Source of the DNA: Candidatus Limnocylindrales bacterium
Lineage (GTDB): Bacteria; Chloroflexota; Limnocylindria; Limnocylindrales; CSP1-4
Assembly (NCBI GenBank): GCA_046704705.1
Contig: JBJKRK010000296.1
Coordinates: 1 to 31,788 of the forward strand
Length of the DNA: 31,788 nucleotides
Direction of reading: 5' to 3'
The position numbers and the translations under genes were made by a program. Below are positions 397 through 12,815 of the stretch, one piece after another. Within the stretch, counting starts at the first letter, position 1. Each line of letters opens with the position of its first letter. The notes beneath the pieces are model-generated. The model had not been told where the DNA came from and ran no database searches. It saw only the letters and a list, made by a program, of their open reading frames with translations.

Positions 397-2400
397 ATGA
401 CGGCTGTCACCCGCGATGCCAGCACCCCGCACACCAGGTTCCGCATCAACCTGCGCGAGCTGGTGCGCTCGCGCGAAGGGGAGTCGCCCTGGGCGCTTCC
501 AGCGCTGCTCGGCGTCACCGGTCTGGCCATCGCGCTCTACATCTGGAACCTGTCGATCAGCGGCTACGCGAACACGTACTACTCCGCGGCGGCGCTGGCT
601 GCCTCGAAGAGCTGGTCCGCGTTCTTCTTCGGCTCGTTCGACCCGGCCAACTTCATCACCGTCGACAAGCCGCCCCTCGCGATCATGGTCATGGGGTTGT
701 CCGTGCGGCTCTTTGGCCTGAGCTCGTGGAGCATCCTGCTGCCCCAGGCGCTCGAGGGAGCGCTGACGGTGGCCATCCTTTTCCTGGCCGTCCGGCGCTC
801 GTTCGGTCCGCTCGCGGCGCTCATCGCTGGGCTCGTCATGGCGCTCACGCCCGCGGCCGTGCTGATCTTCCGCTTCAACAACCCGGACGCGCTCCTGGTG
901 CTGCTGCTCGTCGCGGCGGCATGGGCCCTACTCCACGCGCTGGACGACGGCAGTCTGCGCTGGACCGCGGTTGCCGCAGCGTTCGTTGGCCTCGCCTTCC
1001 TGACCAAGTACCTGCAGGCGTACCTGGTGCTGCCGGGCTTCGCGCTGGTCTACGGGTTCACCGCGGATACGACGCTGCGTCGGCGTGTGACCGGGTTGTT
1101 CGCGGCGGCGATCACGGTGGTCGTCACGAGCGGCTGGTGGGTTGCAGTCGTGCAGCTCATCCCCGCGGCCTCGCGACCGTTCATCGGCGGCAGCACCACC
1201 GGTTCGCCGCTCGATCTGATCTTCGGCTACGACGGGCTGGGGCGCCTGTTCGGTCGCACCGGACCGGGCGGCGGCGTGGGCGGATTCGGGGGAACAGCAG
1301 GCCTCTTCCGCCTGTTCAACGCGGACTTCTTCGGCGAGATCGCCTGGCTGCTCCCGCTCGCGCTCGCTCTCCTGCTGCTCGGCATCTGGCTCCGCCGGCA
1401 CGCTCCCGCCACGGATCGAGGCTTCGCCGGGTACCTGCTCTGGGGATCGTGGTTCGTGATGACCGCGGCGGTCTTCAGCTTCATGTCCGGCGTCATCCAC
1501 TCCTACTATGCGGTGGCCCTCGCGCCGGCGGTTGCGGCGCTCGTGGGGGCCGGCGTGGCCGACCTGTGGGCGCGTCGGTCGCGGGGGTGGCTGGCCCCCG
1601 CAGCGCTGGGCCTCGCATTCGTGGCATCCGCCTGGTGGGGCTGGCAGCTGCTTTCCCGCACGCCCGATTTCGCGCCGTTCGTGGGGCCGCTGGCCGTGGT
1701 GCTGGCAGCAACGGCGGCCGCGGTGCTGCTGCTCGGGTCAGTGCCCCGGCTGTCACCGGTCCTCGGCCGGTTCTCCGGCCCGGCGCTGGCACTCGGCCTG
1801 TCCGCGCTGCTCCTCGCGCCAGCGGCCTACGCGTCCGCCACGCTGGGCACGTCGTACGGCGGGGGCGACCCGCACCCCGGGCCCGGAGCGGCGGGGACTC
1901 GGTTCGGTGCGGCGGGTCATCCCGGCGCCTTCGGAGGCCCGGCAGATGGAGGCAGCGGTGTTCCCTTCGGCGGCGGCACACTGCCTGCCCCTGCTGGGAC
2001 CTTCGGGCTCCCCGGCGGAGGTGGGGCGGACAGCGCCCTGGCCAGCACAGCCCTCGACAGCTACCTCGTGGCGCACCGCGGCAGCGCGACGTGGATCGTG
2101 GCCATCAACTCGGCACAGGACGCCGGCTCGATCGAGCTCGCGACCGGCCTCCCCGTGATGGCGATGGGCGGCTTCACCGGCTCGGATCCGGTCCCGACAC
2201 TCGCGCAGCTGCAGCAGTACATCGCCTCGGGCAGGCTCCGCTACGTGATCGTGGGAGGCGCCGGCGGGTTCGGCGGGCCGGGTGGTTTCGACAGCCTGAG
2301 CTCGGAGCGGATCGCGTGGGTGACGAGCGCGTGCAAGGTCGTCGATGACGCGGGCAGCGGCCGCCGCTCGCTGTACGACTGCGCGGGCGCGGCGACCTGA
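397..2400 (+). CDS. Glycosyltransferase family 39 (ArnT/PMT-like, YycA/YkcB-like) polytopic membrane protein
   Basis: 667 aa with many TM segments. Motifs NTYYSAA, FFFGSFD, ITVDKPP, RFNNPD and FLTKYLQAY are typical of PMT_2/GT39 proteins. Gly-rich C-terminal region; AAGGA upstream of the ATG. Confidence 0.88.
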   Translation: MTAVTRDASTPHTRFRINLRELVRSREGESPWALPALLGVTGLAIALYIWNLSISGYANTYYSAAALAASKSWSAFFFGSFDPANFITVDKPPLAIMVMGLSVRLFGLSSWSILLPQALEGALTVAILFLAVRRSFGPLAALIAGLVMALTPAAVLIFRFNNPDALLVLLLVAAAWALLHALDDGSLRWTAVAAAFVGLAFLTKYLQAYLVLPGFALVYGFTADTTLRRRVTGLFAAAITVVVTSGWWVAVVQLIPAASRPFIGGSTTGSPLDLIFGYDGLGRLFGRTGPGGGVGGFGGTAGLFRLFNADFFGEIAWLLPLALALLLLGIWLRRHAPATDRGFAGYLLWGSWFVMTAAVFSFMSGVIHSYYAVALAPAVAALVGAGVADLWARRSRGWLAPAALGLAFVASAWWGWQLLSRTPDFAPFVGPLAVVLAATAAAVLLLGSVPRLSPVLGRFSGPALALGLSALLLAPAAYASATLGTSYGGGDPHPGPGAAGTRFGAAGHPGAFGGPADGGSGVPFGGGTLPAPAGTFGLPGGGGADSALASTALDSYLVAHRGSATWIVAINSAQDAGSIELATGLPVMAMGGFTGSDPVPTLAQLQQYIASGRLRYVIVGGAGGFGGPGGFDSLSSERIAWVTSACKVVDDAGSGRRSLYDCAGAAT

Positions 2401-2452
2401 GCCGTGGGCGAGGGCAGCCCCGGGCCCGGGCGAGTGGCGGCTGTCCGGGTTC

Positions 2453-3667
2453 TCAGGCTGTGGCCGTGCTCACGACCTGTTCCCCGTCCTGCCAGACCGC
2501 CTCGACCCGCTCGGCCAGCCCGACGAACTCGTACGGGTCGCCTGCGACGACCGCGAGATCGGCCCGCTTCCCGGGCTCGATCGAGCCGAGCTCGTCCTCC
2601 ACCCCGAGCAGCTCGGCAGCCACGATCGTGGTCGCCGCGAGGACCTCGGCCGGCGGCATCCCGCCGGCGGCCATGAGCTCCAGCTCGCGGAGGTTCTTGC
2701 CGTGCGGCGTGACGGGGCTGTCGGTGCCCATCGCGACACGGACGCCGGCTGCCACGGCCCGCCGGAACGACTCGCGATGGACGTCCACGACCTCACGCGC
2801 CTTTGTCAGGCTCGCCTCGGGGATCTGCACGCCCCGCGCGGCCGCGTCGATCACCCCCTGTGGGGCGACGAGCGTCGGCACGAGGTAGGTACCGCGCTCG
2901 AGCATCAGGTCGATCGCCTCGTCGTCGAGGTAGATGCCGTGCTCGACCGAACGGATCCCGGCCCGTACGGCGTTGATGATGCCGGCCGTGGACTGCGCGT
3001 GCGCCATCACCCAGCGACCCGCTGCCGATGCCTCGGCGACGAGCGCCCCGAGCTCGTCCAGTCCGAACTGCGGATGCCGGGGGTCGTCCCTGGCCGACAG
3101 CAAACCCCCGCTCGCGGCGACCTTGATGACGTCGGCGCCGTCGCGGATCAGCTCGCGGACCTTCCGCCGCATCGCGTCCGGGCCGTCCACCACGCCGCTG
3201 GGCATCCCCGGGTAGACGGCGAACATCCCGGCCTCCGCCCCGCTCGGGAGCCAGGGATCGCCGTGGCCACCGGTCTGGCTGAGCATGATCACCGAGATCT
3301 GCATCCGCGGCCCGGCGATCAGACCCTCCTCGAGCGCCCGCTTCATGCCCAGGTCGGCGCCGCCCGCGTCCCGCACGGTGGTGATCCCGAGGCGCAGCGT
3401 CGCGAGCAGGCTGCGCTCGGCTTCGTAGAAGCGGTACGAGATCGGCGTCTGGAGCAGCCGCCAGGTGTCGACATGGCTGGCCGCCATGTGCACGTGGCAG
3501 TCGAACAGCCCGGGCAGCAGCGTCCGACCGGCGACGTCCACGGCGCGGTCGCCGTCCAGCCGCGGACCCACGTCGACGATCCTCCCATCCTGGATCGCGA
3601 CGTCTGCTTCGGCAAGATTCCGTCCCGGCGCATCGAAGACCCGACCACCGGTGAAGACCGTCCGCAT
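2453..3667 (-). CDS. Metal-dependent amidohydrolase (prolidase/ochratoxinase-like subgroup)
   Basis: Metal-site motifs PGLFDCHVH, VIKVAASGG, AHAQ, SVEHG, MGTDS. Start moved from 3880 to ATG 3667 (MRTVFTGG), which has GGAGG 6 nt upstream. Confidence 0.88.
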   Translation of the reverse strand: MRTVFTGGRVFDAPGRNLAEADVAIQDGRIVDVGPRLDGDRAVDVAGRTLLPGLFDCHVHMAASHVDTWRLLQTPISYRFYEAERSLLATLRLGITTVRDAGGADLGMKRALEEGLIAGPRMQISVIMLSQTGGHGDPWLPSGAEAGMFAVYPGMPSGVVDGPDAMRRKVRELIRDGADVIKVAASGGLLSARDDPRHPQFGLDELGALVAEASAAGRWVMAHAQSTAGIINAVRAGIRSVEHGIYLDDEAIDLMLERGTYLVPTLVAPQGVIDAAARGVQIPEASLTKAREVVDVHRESFRRAVAAGVRVAMGTDSPVTPHGKNLRELELMAAGGMPPAEVLAATTIVAAELLGVEDELGSIEPGKRADLAVVAGDPYEFVGLAERVEAVWQDGEQVVSTATA

Positions 3668-3847
3668 GACCAACCTCCGTCGCGGCATTCGATCCAGCCG
3701 CTGCGCCACATGATGGCGCGCCGGGCGGATCGTGGCAGACCGTCTCGCCCCCGGATGGCGCGGCCCACGGAATGGCGCCTTCGCCCCGGCATGCCGCGAG
3801 ACCCTCAGCGGTGGCACTGTCCGCGCCAGCTGGGCACCGTCCGCGCC

Positions 3848-3955
3848 GATCGGCCTGCCCGGCATTGGCCCGGCCGGCAATCGGCCTGCCCCGCAAGCGA
3901 CGTGCCCGCAATCGGCCTGCCCGCAATCGGCCTGCCCGCAATCGGCCCGGCCCGC
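3848..3955. repeat. Degenerate ~15-bp tandem repeat, about 7 units, consensus AATCGGCCTGCCCGC
   Basis: Exact copies at 3910-3924 and 3925-3939; variants at 3848, 3864, 3879, 3895 and 3940. Confidence 0.85.
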
Positions 3956-4235
3956 ACCAGGTCGCCGCGCCCGTCACGGGCTGCGGATCTCCGCCTCACC
4001 CGAAGCCGCCGCACAGCGTCGAGGTCGCCCGCCCCCCGGCTGGTTGACGACGGCCCGCCCTGGAGCGCGGCCGGCGCCTCACTCCGGTACGATGCGCCCG
4101 GACCGTGCGGCGCACCCTGGGTGTCGCTGCAGGCCGGAGGTGGCGGCGTCGTTGCCTCGTGCAGGGCAGCGTCCCCGCGGCACCCGACCGTCCGGCGTGC
4201 GTGCCCCGCGCCCAGGGGAGGAGGAGATCCAGGAC

Positions 4236-5597
4236 ATGGACGAGCGGTTCGACTTCGTGATCATCGGTGCGGGTGCTGCCGGCGAAGCGGCGGCGTATCT
4301 GGCACGTGAGCGCGGCGCCTCGGTCGCGATCGTCGACCGAGAGCTTTTTGGCGGGTCATGCGCGTACTGGGCATGCATGCCATCCAAGACGCTGCTGCAC
4401 GCCGCTGGCATCCATGCCCTGGGCGGGAACTACGCCTGGCCCCGTGCCGCCGCCCGGCGCGACTGGATGATCAACCGGGAGGGGGTCGAGATCCCGAGCG
4501 ACGCCGGTCATGAGAGCGGGCTCACATCCGCGGGAGCAGTTCCCATCCGAGGTTCCGCCCGCCTCGCCGGCCCAGGAACCGTGGTGGTGGAGTCGGCCGA
4601 GGGACCCCGCACGTTCCACGGGTCGCACATCATCCTGGCCGTCGGCTCGAACGCCGCCGTTCCGCGCGTGGAAGGGTTGGACGGGATCGTGCCGTGGACC
4701 AACCGGGAGGGCACCAGTGTCCGCGCGCTACCGGCCACTCTCGTCATCATGGGCGCCGGGCCCACGGGTGTCGAGCTCGCACAGGTCTACGGGCGCTATG
4801 GCGTTCCCACCGCCCTGATCGCGTCGCAGCCTTGCGTCAACGCCAGGGATCACCCCCGCAGCTCGGCCGTGCTCGAAGCGGCGCTGCGCCACGATGGCGT
4901 CGACATCCGGACAGGGGTGCGCGCGGTGCGAATCCGCGCCGGGGCGGGCGCCGCCGGCGCGCACGTCGTCGACCTTTCAGACGGTTCCACGGCGGAGGGC
5001 GCCGAGATCCTGCTCGCCGTGGGTCGCCGGGTCCCCCTCGACGGGCTGGGCCTTGAGACGGTCGGGGTCGAGGTCCGCGACGGCCGTGTCGCTCCGGACG
5101 ACCGGTTGCGCATCGCCGAGGAGCTCTATGTCGTCGGGGATGTCGCGGGGCCGGAGATGCACACCCACGTCGCGCACTACCAGGGCGAGATGGCCGTGCG
5201 GATCGCCATGGGGGAGGACGCGCGGCCCGATTACCGGGCCATCCCGCACGCCACGTACACCGACCCGGAAACGGCCGGCGTCGGCCTGCTCGTGGAGCAG
5301 GCACAGGTACAGGGACGCGACGCGCTCGAGCTGACGGCCGATCTGGCGACCTCCGCGAAGGGCTACGTCTCCGAGTCCGGGGGCCACGTGACGATCGTGG
5401 TCGACCGCGGGGAGCGGCGCCTGCTCGGGGCGTTTCTCGCCGGCCCGGGCGCGTCGGAGGCGCTGCACGAGGCGGTGCTGGCGGTCAAGACACGGACGCC
5501 GCTGGACGTGCTCGCGGACACCATCCATGCCTTCCCGACCACCGCACGCGTGATGGGGAACCTGTTCGTCGACGCGTACCGGCAGCTCCAGGCGTAA
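4236..5597 (+). CDS. Class I pyridine nucleotide-disulfide oxidoreductase (dihydrolipoamide dehydrogenase/mercuric reductase fold)
   Basis: FAD motif IIGAGAAG, redox pair GGSCAYWACMPSK, NAD(P) motif GAGPTGVE, C-terminal IHAFPT. ATG 4236 follows a GAGGAGGAG-rich RBS region. Confidence 0.88.
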   Translation: MDERFDFVIIGAGAAGEAAAYLARERGASVAIVDRELFGGSCAYWACMPSKTLLHAAGIHALGGNYAWPRAAARRDWMINREGVEIPSDAGHESGLTSAGAVPIRGSARLAGPGTVVVESAEGPRTFHGSHIILAVGSNAAVPRVEGLDGIVPWTNREGTSVRALPATLVIMGAGPTGVELAQVYGRYGVPTALIASQPCVNARDHPRSSAVLEAALRHDGVDIRTGVRAVRIRAGAGAAGAHVVDLSDGSTAEGAEILLAVGRRVPLDGLGLETVGVEVRDGRVAPDDRLRIAEELYVVGDVAGPEMHTHVAHYQGEMAVRIAMGEDARPDYRAIPHATYTDPETAGVGLLVEQAQVQGRDALELTADLATSAKGYVSESGGHVTIVVDRGERRLLGAFLAGPGASEALHEAVLAVKTRTPLDVLADTIHAFPTTARVMGNLFVDAYRQLQA

Positions 5598-6721: not shown

Positions 6722-7822
6722 TCAGCGCCGTCCCGGGTCGGCGCCCTGTCCGGCACGCAGGACGACGATCGCGTTCTCGAGCCGGAGCTTGGCGATCGTG
6801 AGGTACTTGGCCAGGTTCGCGCGGTCCGTCTCGCTCGCCTCATGCATGGCGTTGGACCCGCGCAGGACGTCCACCAGCTCATCGAGCGCCTCGCCGAGTC
6901 GGGTCTTCGCCTGGACCAGCGCGTCGTCGCCCAGCACCCGGGGACCACGCTCGTCGGAATGCCCCGCCAGCAGGCCCATGGAGTCGGGCACGCCGTCGGG
7001 GGAGGCGTCCTCACGCGCCGCTGACGCCTGATCGGCCGCCTCAGCCGCCTCGCCGGCGGCGGTCGGGATCGTGGCGCGGCCGCCGGGACCAGTGGTCATC
7101 TCCGGATCGACCGTGCTGCCGGCCCGCCGACCCTCGATGCGCTGGCGCAGCTTCATCAGGGACAGCTCGCCGCGCGCCACCTGCTCCGCGAGCCGGCGGC
7201 GCTTGCGCGGATCCTCGACCTTCAGCAGCTCGTACGCATGGGAGACCGTGTCTTTGCGCAAAGACACGAGCTCGCGGACCTCCGGCGGCGCGTCCGCCAG
7301 GCGCAGCCGGTTCTCGATGTAGCCCTTGTCCTTGCCGATCTTCTGGGCCAGCTTGCGGATGCTGTAGCCGTGCTCGCGCGTCATCCGGTCGTACATCGAC
7401 GCTTCGTCGAGTGGCGAGAGGTCTTCGCGCTGCAGGTTCTCGATGATCGCGATCTCGAGCGCGGTGTCATCGTCGAGTTCCTCGACGAGCCCCGGCACGG
7501 TCGTCAGGCCGGCGAGCTGTGCGGCGCGCCAGCGCCGCTCCCCGGCCACCAGCTGGAACCGGCCCGCGGCAGCCGGTCGGACCAGAATCGGCTGCAGCAC
7601 CCCGTGCTCGCGCAGCGACGCGGCGAGCTCGTTCAGGCCGACCTCGTCGATCATCAGCCGCGGCTGTTGCGGGTTGGGGTCGATCCGGTCCACCGGGATC
7701 TGGCGGACGCCGGGCAGCTTCTTCTCGCCCTCCCGGCCCAGCAGGCTGAGTACGCCGGTGGGAAGCTCGCGATCTTCGGACAGGCGACGCGCGGCGGCGC
7801 TGCGGAAATCGGGCCTAGCCAA
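6722..7822 (-). CDS. parB: ParB/Spo0J-family CTPase partition protein with divergent HTH and long C-terminal region
   Basis: NPQQPR, GVLQPILVR, arginine patch AGERRWRAA, ENLQREDL, HTH SIRKLAQKIGKDKGYIENRLRL. Overlaps the parA stop. Confidence 0.93.
   Translation of the reverse strand: MARPDFRSAAARRLSEDRELPTGVLSLLGREGEKKLPGVRQIPVDRIDPNPQQPRLMIDEVGLNELAASLREHGVLQPILVRPAAAGRFQLVAGERRWRAAQLAGLTTVPGLVEELDDDTALEIAIIENLQREDLSPLDEASMYDRMTREHGYSIRKLAQKIGKDKGYIENRLRLADAPPEVRELVSLRKDTVSHAYELLKVEDPRKRRRLAEQVARGELSLMKLRQRIEGRRAGSTVDPEMTTGPGGRATIPTAAGEAAEAADQASAAREDASPDGVPDSMGLLAGHSDERGPRVLGDDALVQAKTRLGEALDELVDVLRGSNAMHEASETDRANLAKYLTIAKLRLENAIVVLRAGQGADPGRR
7247..7268. promoter_or_regulatory. Palindrome copy 1 (candidate non-canonical parS), inside the parB CDS
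   Basis: Perfect 22-bp inverted repeat CGTGTCTTTGCGCAAAGACACG; core GTCTTTGCGCAAAGAC at 7250-7265. The sequence is certain; the function is inferred. Confidence 0.7.
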
Positions 7823-8585
7823 GGTCGATCACCTCCCGTGCCAGCTCGCGAAACGAGCGAGCTGCCTCCGACGTCCCGGCGTAGACGGTCACCGGCCGGC
7901 CGGTGAGCGGCGCCTCTCCCAGTTTGACCGTGCTCTTGATGATGCTGTGAAAGACGTGGTGGTCGCCCAGCTCCCGCAGTTCGTCGAGCATCTCGCGACC
8001 CAGCAGGGTGCGGCCGTCGTAGAAGGTGGGCAGCAGGCCGAGGATGCGGAGGTCGCGGTTGAGGCCCTTCGCGCGGATCTGGTTGATGACCTTGACGAGC
8101 GCCGTGAGTCCTTTGAGCGCGTAGTACTGCGTCTGCACCGGGATGATCACGTCGTTCGCCGCGACGAGGCCGTTGATCGTCAGCAGGCCGAGAGTCGGCG
8201 GGCAATCGACCAGGACGTAGTCGTACCGAGGTTCGACCCAGCCCGCGAGGGCTTCGCGCAGTGCGTGCTCTCTGCCGATCGCGGTGAACAGCTCGACTTC
8301 GGTGGACGCCAGCTCGAGGGTCGCAGGGGCCACGTCGATGCCCGTGGTCTGCGTGGGCACCACGACCTCGTCCATCGTCGCGCGCGCGTCGCCGAGCACA
8401 TCGGAGACGGAATGTTGCAGCGTCCCGAGGTTCACACCGAGTCCGACGGTGAGGTTCGCCTGCGGGTCCATGTCCACGCACAAGACCCGGTGGCCCTGCT
8501 CGGCGAGTGCACCGGCCAGATTGATCGCCGTTGTCGTCTTTCCCACGCCGCCTTTCTGGTTGGCGATCGCGATCACGTTCGTCAA
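7815..8585 (-). CDS. parA: ParA/Soj-family partition ATPase
   Basis: Deviant Walker A IANQKGGVGKTTT, VDMDPQAN, DCPPTLG, IIPVQTQYYAL. Likely TTG start at 8585 with AGAGGG upstream. Confidence 0.94.
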   Translation of the reverse strand: MTNVIAIANQKGGVGKTTTAINLAGALAEQGHRVLCVDMDPQANLTVGLGVNLGTLQHSVSDVLGDARATMDEVVVPTQTTGIDVAPATLELASTEVELFTAIGREHALREALAGWVEPRYDYVLVDCPPTLGLLTINGLVAANDVIIPVQTQYYALKGLTALVKVINQIRAKGLNRDLRILGLLPTFYDGRTLLGREMLDELRELGDHHVFHSIIKSTVKLGEAPLTGRPVTVYAGTSEAARSFRELAREVIDLG

Positions 8586-8675
8586 GGCGCGTCCCTCTCT
8601 CTGTCGCTCGTGGGCGGCGATCGTCCCGTGCGCGGCCGGCGATCTGGTGTTGGCGCGGGATGAGCCAGGCAAGGC

Positions 8676-8730: not shown

Positions 8731-8773
8731 TTGTCCACAGCTGACCCGAGTTGTTCACCGAATCTGTGGATAA
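8731..8773. promoter_or_regulatory. DnaA-box cluster upstream of parA
   Basis: TGTGGATAA 8765-8773 (perfect reverse complement of TTATCCACA), TTGTCCACA 8731-8739 (1 mismatch), TTGTTCACC 8751-8759 (degenerate). Confidence 0.7.
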
Positions 8774-8794: not shown

Positions 8795-8833
8795 GCTGAC
8801 GGGGACCTGACGGCTGCTGACGGCGACCTGACG
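8795..8833. repeat. Helically phased direct repeats: CTGACG x4, forming two 18-mers GCTGACGG(G/C)GACCTGACG 21 bp apart
   Basis: CTGACG starts at 8796, 8807, 8817 and 8828 (spacing 11/10/11). Confidence 0.8.
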
Positions 8834-8937: not shown

Positions 8938-8955
8938 CGTCTTTGCGCAAAGACG
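8938..8955. promoter_or_regulatory. Palindrome copy 2 (candidate non-canonical parS or operator)
   Basis: Perfect 18-bp palindrome CGTCTTTGCGCAAAGACG with the same 16-bp core (8939-8954). Confidence 0.7.
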
Positions 8956-10534: not shown

Positions 10535-10550
10535 GTCTTTGCGCAAAGAC
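10535..10550. promoter_or_regulatory. Palindrome copy 3 (candidate non-canonical parS)
   Basis: Perfect GTCTTTGCGCAAAGAC 5 bp after the pccB stop codon. Confidence 0.7.
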
Positions 10551-10656
10551 AGGGGGGCCCGCGGTCTCGTGTTGCCCTGCGGGTGCGCCCCCACCCCCGG
10601 CTGGACGATTCGGGCCGTGCCCCTGGGAGCGGACACGCGCGAATGGGTCGACGGCC

Positions 10657-12266
<1,610 letters not shown>

Positions 12267-12270
<4 letters not shown>

Positions 12271-12815
12271 CGCAGCTGCCGGAACAGGCTGGCTCGTCCC
12301 CCGTTCCCCAGGGCGCGGCACCAGCCGTTCCCGACCCCGGAGCACGGAGCACCGCGTTGCGCGTGACGGTGGCGCCGGAGGGTCAGCTGGCCGTCGACCT
12401 CGTGCCGCAGGCCGACCTGCACCGCGCTGCACGGCAGTCGGTGCATGCGCTGCCGCTCTCGGCCGAGGATCGGGCCGCCGGACGGCGGCGCTACGAAGCG
12501 TTCGTCGACGGATGGCGGTTCGAGTTGACCGTCGAGGCGGCCCACCGCGCGGCCCTGCGGGAGCGTGTCCGGCGTGGACTCGATGGCGAGGGCGGGAGCG
12601 GACCCCAGGTCATCCGGGCGCAGATCCCGGGGAGGATCGTGCAGGTCTGGGTGACGGCAGGCGCCGACGTCGAGGCAGGCGCCCACCTCTGTTCCCTGGA
12701 AGCGATGAAGATGGAGAACGAAATCCGGGCCCCGCGAGCGGGTACTATCGCGCGGGTCATGGTCGAGCCCGGCAGCCGGGTGGAACTGGGGGATGAGCTG
12801 GTGGTGATCGAGTGA
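12267..12815 (+). CDS. Biotin carboxyl carrier protein with N-terminal extension
   Basis: C-terminal biotinyl domain with [12 protein letters not shown] overlap with the accC stop. Confidence 0.88.

Follow-up and report, generated by a model that had tools for sequence, protein, structure and literature searches.

The DNA specificity of ParB-family proteins has so far been worked out mainly around one natural switch, that from ParB to Noc, and around a few proteobacterial secondary replicons. Caulobacter ParB has R173, T179, A184 and G201 where Noc has Q, K, K and R, and Noc represents a re-specification that exists beside a canonical ParB (Jalal et al. 2020, PMC7383237). Among the Caulobacter variants specific for the canonical site parS, only R173 was invariable; position 201 accepted G, C, S or T, position 179 tolerated all residues but P, D and E, and position 184 tolerated any residue. 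Further residues, Q162, G170, K171, S172, N178 and R204, are DNA contacts conserved in both ParB and Noc (PMC7383237). Here we describe ParB2, a ParB-family cytidine triphosphate (CTP)-hydrolysing (CTPase) and DNA-binding protein encoded on a 31,788-nucleotide stretch of DNA (the whole of which is called the window below) from an uncultured soil bacterium of the class Limnocylindria, whose metagenome-assembled genome is 2.95 Mb long and 77% complete. The protein departs from canonical ParBs at several of these contacts, and its gene lies in a cluster of palindromes that are probably its binding sites.

Related ParBs of secondary replicons and plasmids in the Burkholderiales go with diversified 16-bp palindromes of narrow specificity, one of them on an integrated plasmid (PMC5450999), and a survey from 2025 stresses the breadth of ParB-like proteins, with Chloroflexota not mentioned in its main text (PMC12704722). 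In the literature, no paper was found on a Limnocylindria ParB, on a 'second ParABS' or on this system. What is new here is the specific residue set with its specificity, a subfamily that comes with a series of palindromes, and a complete second system that is stable across a class and far from the origin of a single chromosome.

The parB2 gene (positions 6722..7822, minus strand) encodes 366 residues, arranged as a conserved N-terminal peptide (RPDFR..RRLSE), a ParB_N domain, a helix-turn-helix (HTH), a low-complexity linker and a helical C-terminal domain, the last of which is a helical hairpin without a Pfam match. ParB_N (PF02195) scored 115.8 bits (cut-off 26.3), HTH_ParB (PF17762) 71.5 bits and TIGR00180 162.5 bits (cut-off 58.45). 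The CTPase motifs GERRWRA and ENLQRE, which an earlier reading of the letters alone (the sequence-only reading) had called intact, are both present and were invariant among the aligned homologues.

That reading had also aligned the HTH and the following helix (residues 154-197, 7232..7363, minus strand) to Caulobacter ParB by hand and without gaps, which placed K, R, D and S at the four specificity positions and Y197 at the conserved arginine after the HA motif. Because this hand alignment was its weak point, the register was tested by phmmer and by structure. Searched against all PDB sequences, ParB2 aligned with Caulobacter ParB 6t1f over residues 34-225 (E = 2.9e-41) and with Geobacillus Noc 7ng0 over residues 38-229 (E = 3.5e-45), both alignments being gap-free from the HTH as far as the HA(R/Y) motif. 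The AlphaFold2 model, for which 39 homologues were used and which has a predicted local distance difference test (pLDDT) score above 90 over residues 40-230, placed helices at 155-162, 166-176, 180-188 and 190-199 of the HTH region. By Foldseek, the model matched parS-bound Caulobacter ParB 6t1f_D with a template modelling (TM) score of 0.83 and a root-mean-square deviation of 2.8 Å, and the DNA-binding domain of Noc on its site (6y93) with TM scores of 0.80-0.82. Given these gap-free alignments and structural matches, the five equivalences therefore stand: K166 = R173, R172 = T179, D177 = A184, S194 = G201 and Y197 = R204. No shift of register was seen, the HTH residues were as quoted, and the specificity residues given there for ParB and Noc agree with the published ones (PMC7383237).

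The DNA-reading positions, in Caulobacter numbering, were then compared between 81 canonical-type representatives and 167 ParB2-like (GKDKGY-type) proteins from our searches. Position 173 is R in 78 of the canonical-type proteins and K in all 167 ParB2-like ones (K166, codon 7325..7327, on the minus strand like the other codons given here). At position 201, G in 73 of 81 is replaced by S in 162 of 167 (S194, 7241..7243), and at position 204, R or K in 79 of 81 is replaced by Y in 163 of 167 (Y197, 7232..7234). Three other positions are separated as clearly: 162 is Q in 62 and H in 13 canonical-type proteins and I, V or L in every ParB2-like protein (I155 in ParB2), 196 is G in 53 of 81 and R in 165 of 167, and 198 is L or I in 75 of 81 and D in 166 of 167. 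Position 179 is R throughout the ParB2-like proteins (R172, 7307..7309; 167/167) and highly variable in canonical ParBs. Position 184, which is D in 151 of the 167 (D177, 7292..7294), is not diagnostic, being variable in canonical ParBs and D in 9 of the 81. D172 is invariant in the GKDKGY-type proteins and also common in canonical ParBs (24/81), and in ParB2 itself N178, G170 and K171 are kept.

Among the 120 closest ParB2 homologues (61-66% identical), the state K-R-D-S-Y was found in 113, K-R-N-S-Y in five and K-R-G-S-Y in two, and the alignment indicates a conserved state, not chance drift. The four specificity positions, put forward earlier as evidence of a changed specificity, do depart from parS-type residues, but positions 179 and 184 carry little weight and S201 is permitted in parS binders (PMC7383237), and the changes at 162 (Q to I/V/L), 196 (G196R) and 198 (L198D) had not been listed. 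Judged from the aligned residues, the HTH is re-specified, with the weight on positions 173, 201 and 204 together with 162, 196 and 198, and not on 'all four'. With the parS-reading residues replaced (R173K, G201S, R204Y, Q162I, G196R, L198D), ParB2 most likely does not use the canonical parS TGTTNCACGTGAAACA, and we would be surprised to see it bound.

A candidate for the site of ParB2, named parS2 here, is the palindrome GTCTTTGCGCAAAGAC, which has the form GTCTTTGC|GCAAAGAC, 16 bp with a central CG. Copy 1 lies inside parB2 and extends to a 22-bp perfect palindrome (7247..7268, core at 7250-7265). Copy 2 is an 18-bp perfect palindrome (8938..8955, core at 8939-8954) in the intergenic region between the divergent parA2 and pccB, 22 nt before the pccB ATG, and copy 3 is the 16-bp core (10535..10550), 5 nt past the pccB stop codon. 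When up to two mismatches were allowed, these three were the only copies in the 2.95-Mb assembly, all perfect and all within 3.3 kb in the window, where 0.05 matches would be expected even at three mismatches. Copy 1 encodes V-S-L-R-K-D-T with the rare codons TCT (3.3% of Ser), TTG (5.0% of Leu) and AAA (12.9% of Lys), a synonymous spelling with a joint probability of 7.5e-5 given the peptide and the codon usage of the window. In ten related loci, the copy 5-10 nt past the pccB stop was the most conserved (10/10); the intergenic copy was at the same position in eight, and the copy inside parB2, again with rare codons, was also found in eight.

The palindrome was then counted in 121 Limnocylindria genomes of families f1-f5 (35 of f1, to which the window belongs, 40 of f4, 39 of f3 and 5 of f2). 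With at most one mismatch, GTCTTTGCGCAAAGAC was found in all 35 f1 and in 36 of the 40 f4 genomes; the copies number 1-4 and are in every case grouped within a few kb of a single contig. The reversed pattern, used as a control, matched none of the 121 genomes. Of the four f4 genomes without a hit, three were examined, and these have versions with 2-3 mismatches at the same positions. The palindrome is essentially absent from f3 (1/39) and f2 (0/5). ParB2 orthologues are present in 120 of the 121 genomes; among 301 sampled genomes of the phylum, DNA-binding domains of the ParB2 type (identity of 64% or more) were confined to this class, the next best being 44% identical, and the closest homologues carry names from Candidatus Limnocylindria. 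As for the ATPase, the only one found in the reduced f2 genomes G011, G044, G056 and G065 (about 1.1 Mb) is ParA1-like (40-43% identical); in G104, which belongs to their genus, ParA2 is still encoded beside ParB2.

In f3, f5 and f2, the helix past the HTH is changed (AQRYDTLSAAYE, SQRHDTLAAAYE, AERSDTISHAYE) and the pccB neighbourhood has been lost; the ParB2 helices of these families read AQRYDT..SAAYE, AERSDT..SHAYE or SQRHDT..AAAYE. No convincing site for the orthologues of these three families was found by clustering of near-palindromes, by shared exact palindromes, in upstream regions, or by searches for GTC-N8/10/12-GAC, for TGTC-N10-GACA across whole genomes and for repeated 11-mers. 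Applied to control loci of f1 and f4, the same clustering found the known motif in 8/8. A sequence inside parB2 of f2, GTCGCGGAGCGCTCCGACAC, was considered as a site and rejected, as it had no good second copy.

A Pfam search of the assembly also identified a second ParB in the same genome, ParB1 (contig C231), whose HTH reads GRSR..ITNT..LLE..EGHAR. Its gene follows a parA and precedes gyrB, the protein has the LGRGL ParA-binding motif (GLGRGLAALIP), and the only good canonical parS core in the assembly, GTTTCACGTGAAAC, lies just upstream of this operon. A single perfect GTTTCACGTGAAAC was found in each of five near-complete relatives, about 1 kb from a parB1 that itself lies 21-53 kb from dnaA, and each of them has 2-3 copies of the new palindrome, only at parAB2 (controls 0). 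In these five (the own genome is too fragmented), ParB2 shares its multi-megabase contig with dnaA and ParB1 and is separated from dnaA by 0.76-1.8 Mb of contig (35-42% of the genome, shorter arc), and the canonical parS at parAB1 is likewise 0.76-1.8 Mb along the contig from parAB2. In the relatives, the origin-proximal location with a canonical parS nearby is that of ParB1, not of ParB2. The sequence-only reading had predicted a non-canonical target that fits a palindrome nearby, and this part of it agrees with what was found, in that the palindrome surrounds the gene and the canonical site is served by the other ParB. Taken with the residue changes, it is quite likely that ParB2 binds GTCTTTGCGCAAAGAC.

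An exhaustive search with HMMER, run over 1.84 billion representatives, was used to look for relatives of ParB2. Outside the ParB2 clade, identity to the nearest ones is 45-52%, and their HTHs follow the signature GK(G/S)KGY..(N/D)RL ... RPDT; for the subfamily as a whole the signature is GK(D/G/S)K(G/S)Y..(N/D)RL ... R.DT. A maximum-likelihood tree of 65 rows with SH-aLRT supports, from which fragments and proteins without the HTH region were left out, placed ParB2 in one group (99), joined it with eleven of these 45-52%-identical relatives and with the ParB of the Candidatus Chlorohelix allophototropha plasmid NZ_CP128402.1 (100), and set this clade apart from 36 canonical ParBs and from the own ParB1. 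The proposal of a 'third specificity class' has to be given up: ParB2 falls in a separate ParB subfamily, which already has at least six different palindromes.

Perfect palindromes were found in or beside parB at seven of the nine loci of these relatives whose DNA could be read, in 1-5 copies, with the 16-bp core GT-N12-AC and a central CG or AT, as in GTCTTTGCGCAAAGAC. P0155, P0149 and P0150, which have near-identical HTHs, have GTGTCTGGACGTCCAGACAC in 3, 2 and 5 copies at three different loci; the Chlorohelix plasmid ParB has TGTCTGTATATACAGACA (2 copies, just past parB), P0207 has CGTTTTTGCGCAAAAACG (1 copy inside parB), P0198 has ATCGTATTTACGTAAATACGAT (inside parB, on three contigs) and P0184 has GTACTCACGTGAGTAC (2 copies). 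Two members, P0276 (an orphan ParB from Chthonomonadales) and P0247, had no palindrome. The outer GTCT/AGAC of the site in the window is common to three of the relative groups, and its inner TTTGCGCAAA is common to P0207. K173 and R179 are invariant across the subfamily and positions 184, 201 and 204 vary with the site, a pattern which suggests that the invariant residues may read the invariant outer bases.

Genes for a TraG-like coupling protein, a relaxase, Mrr or methyltransferases, or insertion sequence elements, are found on several of the relatives' contigs. The subfamily is thus one of plasmids and mobile elements, and ParB2, set apart from ParB1 in the tree, is a domesticated member of it and not, like Noc, a recent duplicate of the host's own ParB. 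Among the individual contigs, L049, L050 and L051 have parA-parB with 2-5 copies of the perfect 20-bp palindrome GTGTCTGGACGTCCAGACAC, some of them inside parB; TraG-like and relaxase genes are on L049, Mrr and a methylase on L049 and L050, and a fragment of a Tn3-family transposase on L051.

Compared with canonical ParB/Spo0J (6t1f, Bacillus subtilis 6sdk and Thermus 1vz0), ParB2 has the same ParB_N CTPase motifs (GERRxRA and ENLQRE) and the same HTH fold, and is about 42-45% identical over the structural alignment. Both have a parB coupled to parA with one site inside the gene, and the 16-bp palindromes, the candidate one of ParB2 included, are both centred on CG. The differences are the K, S and Y at R173, G201 and R204, the I/V at Q162, the R at G196 and the D at L198, to which the lack of an LG(R/K)GL motif, the helical-hairpin C-terminal domain and the distance of the locus from dnaA are added. 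Noc, as a re-specified ParB-family HTH that coexists with a canonical ParB, is the best-scoring PDB and NCBIfam relative of ParB2, but ParB2 is not Noc: TIGR04285 scored 189.4 bits against a cut-off of 315, and the residues are K-R-D-S and not Q-K-K-R. Noc, which has an N-terminal membrane-targeting helix, keeps R204, which ParB2 has lost, and Noc is an orphan with sites scattered over the chromosome, whereas ParB2 has its own ParA and 2-4 clustered candidate sites.

The Burkholderiales systems, the Bsr partition families, are similar in having 16-bp palindromes centred on CG whose outer part is T-rich and in the presence of several orthogonal systems per cell, a likeness drawn from the form of the palindrome. 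They belong to another phylum, while the ParB2 system is on the main chromosome among housekeeping metabolic genes and is vertically conserved across the class with synteny and DnaA boxes. In the same clade of the tree are the Chlorohelix plasmid ParB (47% identical over residues 100-229) and the ParBs of mobile-element-like metagenomic contigs (45-52% overall), which have a GKDK.YIENRL-type helix with K173 and R179 and occur as parA-parB pairs with perfect palindromes that share the outer GTCT/AGAC arms. Most of these keep R at 204 and P at 197, their inner 8 bp are GGACGTCC or GTATATAC instead of TTGCGCAA, and they are plasmid- or element-borne and not chromosomal; no member has been characterised experimentally.

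The partner gene parA2 (7815..8672, minus strand) overlaps the start of parB2 and encodes a ParA-type ATPase with a deviant Walker-A motif (KGGVGKTT; Pfam AAA_31 198.7 bits, plus CbiA and ParA). Its orthologues start about 9 residues ahead of the P-loop, and the true start of parA2 is probably nearer 8582. A predicted complex of a ParA2 dimer with ATP and ParB2 residues 1-45 had a score of 0.00 and a pLDDT of about 30 for the partner, too low to speak for or against contact between the two proteins. Upstream of parA2 there is a pair of DnaA boxes (8731..8773), TTGTCCACA at 8731-8739 and TGTGGATAA at 8765-8773, and a box with at most one mismatch was found in 9/9 loci of f1 and f4. The box TTATCCACA is perfect in seven of these loci and has one mismatch in two. 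The two f1 boxes are about 25 nt apart and inverted relative to each other, the f4 box always starts 27 nt ahead of where the intergenic palindrome starts, and locus L119 also has DnaA boxes. None was seen upstream of parA2 in f3 and f5, where the regions were read by eye and not scanned. Phased CTGACG repeats (four copies, window 8796-8833), which had been pointed out earlier, are not conserved; related loci have 0 or 1 copy elsewhere in the region.

The position of the locus on the chromosome could be followed in G090, a relative with a single contig of 2.09 Mb. As ParB2 and dnaA share this contig, the locus there does not qualify as a secondary replicon. With dnaA at 0.275 Mb, the cumulative gene-orientation bias peaks at about 1.33-1.38 Mb, which fits a terminus opposite dnaA, and ParB2 at 1.077 Mb is about 77% along that replichore. 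GC skew was rejected for locating origin and terminus in G090, as it is weak and merely tracks gene orientation; the coding strand is C-rich, and the cumulative skew is therefore inverted compared with the usual one and cannot be read naively. The genes around the locus include those for a dihydrolipoamide-dehydrogenase-like protein, a Tag glycosylase, pccB, a biotin carboxylase and methylmalonyl-CoA mutase. Because of these housekeeping flanks and the synteny shared between f1 and f4, a recent insertion can be set aside.

Based on these results, ParB2 probably serves a second ParA/ParB/parS-type system as its DNA-binding CTP-switch protein; this system exists beside the origin-proximal ParAB-parS and is orthogonal to it. 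A ParB2 dimer would nucleate on the 16-bp palindrome GTCTTTGCGCAAAGAC, with one HTH per 8-bp arm, and would then close as a CTP clamp, which is proposed because GERRWRA and ENLQRE are intact. The clamp could spread across the parB2-parA2-pccB region of about 3.3 kb, and the spread ParB2 could serve as cargo for ParA2, with the divergent promoter region probably autoregulated. That the system partitions or positions an origin-distal region of the chromosome, rather than only regulating genes, has in our view about an even chance.

Several observations weigh against this interpretation. ParB2 has no N-terminal ParA-binding motif LG(R/K)GL; its N-terminus is MARPDFRSAAARRLSEDRELPTGVLSLLG. Another N-terminal peptide is conserved among the homologues (P4, D5, F6, R7, R13, L14 and L28 are invariant). 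In four of the five f2 genomes ParB2 occurs without ParA2. In f3, f2 and f5, where the palindrome is missing, the helix of ParB2 is changed and the pccB neighbourhood is lost as well, so that loss of the site goes with two changes together. At locus L119 the HTH, SVRSDTLSAAYE, is changed at positions 197 and 202, yet a perfect copy past pccB, the only one there, is kept, so that the coupling between residues and site is loose. Finally, the copy past the pccB stop is placed where an operator of the gene that follows in the propionyl-CoA carboxylase operon could plausibly be.

As ParB2 lacks the LG(R/K)GL motif and most f2 genomes lack ParA2, a KorB-like role in regulation has to be taken seriously, in place of partition or in addition to it. 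ParB2 would then bind the palindrome and act mainly as a CTP-dependent transcriptional regulator or roadblock of parAB2 and the pccB-pccA operon and would not be a centromere protein, which we consider unlikely, although it is the most serious of the alternatives. Two of the three copies bracket pccB exactly, at positions conserved in f1 and f4, the KorB structure 8qa9 matches the model (TM score 0.74), and the locus is far from the origin. However, the KorB domain of Pfam (PF08535) scored 17.8 bits, below its cut-off of 22.3, and parA2 is translationally coupled to parB2, the two genes adjoining in f1, f3, f4 and f5. Also, in f4 the intergenic copy adjoins parA2 and is about 145 nt or more from pccB, with a transfer RNA (tRNA) gene between them, and on mobile elements the relatives have palindromes of this kind together with parA-parB but without pcc genes. 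Autoregulation and partition are, moreover, not mutually exclusive.

It is less probable again that some other regulator of the propionyl-CoA carboxylase operon uses the palindrome as its operator, with ParB2 acting on a different target and the two placed together by synteny only. This improbable explanation would account for the palindrome being present only where pccB is adjacent (f1, f4 and L119), for its absence where ParB2 occurs without pccB (f3, f5 and f2), and for the choice of the copy that L119 keeps. Against it, no transcription-factor gene was found among the scanned open reading frames (ORFs), the copy inside parB2 is kept by rare codons in 8/10 loci, and the five near-complete genomes have no copy elsewhere. 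Related ParBs in unrelated contexts have their own GT-N12-AC palindromes in or beside parB, and pcc genes were absent at these loci, which argues against a pcc operator that merely happens to be near parB2.

Neutral or permissive HTH substitutions, which would leave ParB2 as a redundant paralogue of ParB1 on the canonical parS, are very improbable. In the Caulobacter library, S201, R179 and D184 each allow parS to be bound (PMC7383237), and N178, G170 and K171 are retained, but the position that was invariable among parS binders, R173 (PMC7383237), is K in every ParB2-like protein, R204, which ParB and Noc share, is Y, and Q162 is I, V or L. Each relative examined has a single canonical parS, which is at parAB1 and far from parAB2, and the tree separates ParB1 and ParB2 deeply. 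Least probable of all is that the palindromes are RNA hairpins for stability or processing on both sides of the pccB messenger RNA, as the copies in the pccB 5' leader and just past its stop codon might suggest, since variants are often changed in one arm only with no compensatory change (for example GTCTTTGCGCAAGGAC and GTCTGTGCGCAAAGAC), the stem has six mostly A-T pairs with no loop beyond GCGC, and one copy is inside a gene on the opposite strand.

If the preferred reading of ParB2 as part of a second, orthogonal system is followed further, one may tentatively picture the whole class as keeping, on one chromosome, a pair of orthogonal CTP-dependent ParABS systems, of which the second was domesticated from a plasmid-type ParB subfamily. 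It would mark a fixed locus about three-quarters along one replichore, with conserved DnaA boxes at the promoter, and would either be active in positioning or segregating the part of the chromosome that replicates late or be what is left, still working, of an ancient replicon fusion. The subfamily would then offer a natural series of ParBs and palindromes, with invariant outer GT..AC and variable inner bases, for a recognition code beyond the pair of ParB and Noc. We regard this wider picture as speculative.

ParB2 is a conserved, chromosome-borne ParB without three of the contacts described above, R173, which is invariable in parS binders, and Q162 and R204, which are conserved in ParB and Noc. 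Its candidate site is clearly defined, being exclusive to the locus, clustered and held by rare codons, and the related pairs of ParB and palindrome provide a series for comparison. If the binding is confirmed, ParB specificity can be rebuilt at positions beyond the four that have been studied, and a new orthogonal ParB/parS pair could be used in DNA labelling tools. Confirmation would also raise the question of why a single chromosome of 2-3 Mb would need a second partition-type system far from its origin.

Other features of the window were also recorded. The biotin carboxylase (pccA/accC-like) gene at 10657-12815 appears to be split over two frames, with the biotin carboxylase domains in the frame 10657-12270 and the biotinyl (biotin carboxyl carrier protein) domain at the C-terminus of the frame 10539-12815, which could be a frameshift or an assembly error. 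Two long ORFs on the plus strand, 369-2348 and 2345-4309 (659 and 654 residues), had no Pfam family at E <= 1e-5. The tRNA gene between the intergenic palindrome and pccB was found in f4 (loci L018-L024), and the window, from f1, has none there; in f3 and f5 a tRNA gene likewise lies ahead of parA2. In loci L008-L017 and L021 of f3/f5, a conserved hairpin, GCGYG..GCTTCC..CRCGC, is present at the start of parA2 beside the tRNA gene of the opposite strand, and its stem sequences vary among genomes while the complementarity is kept.

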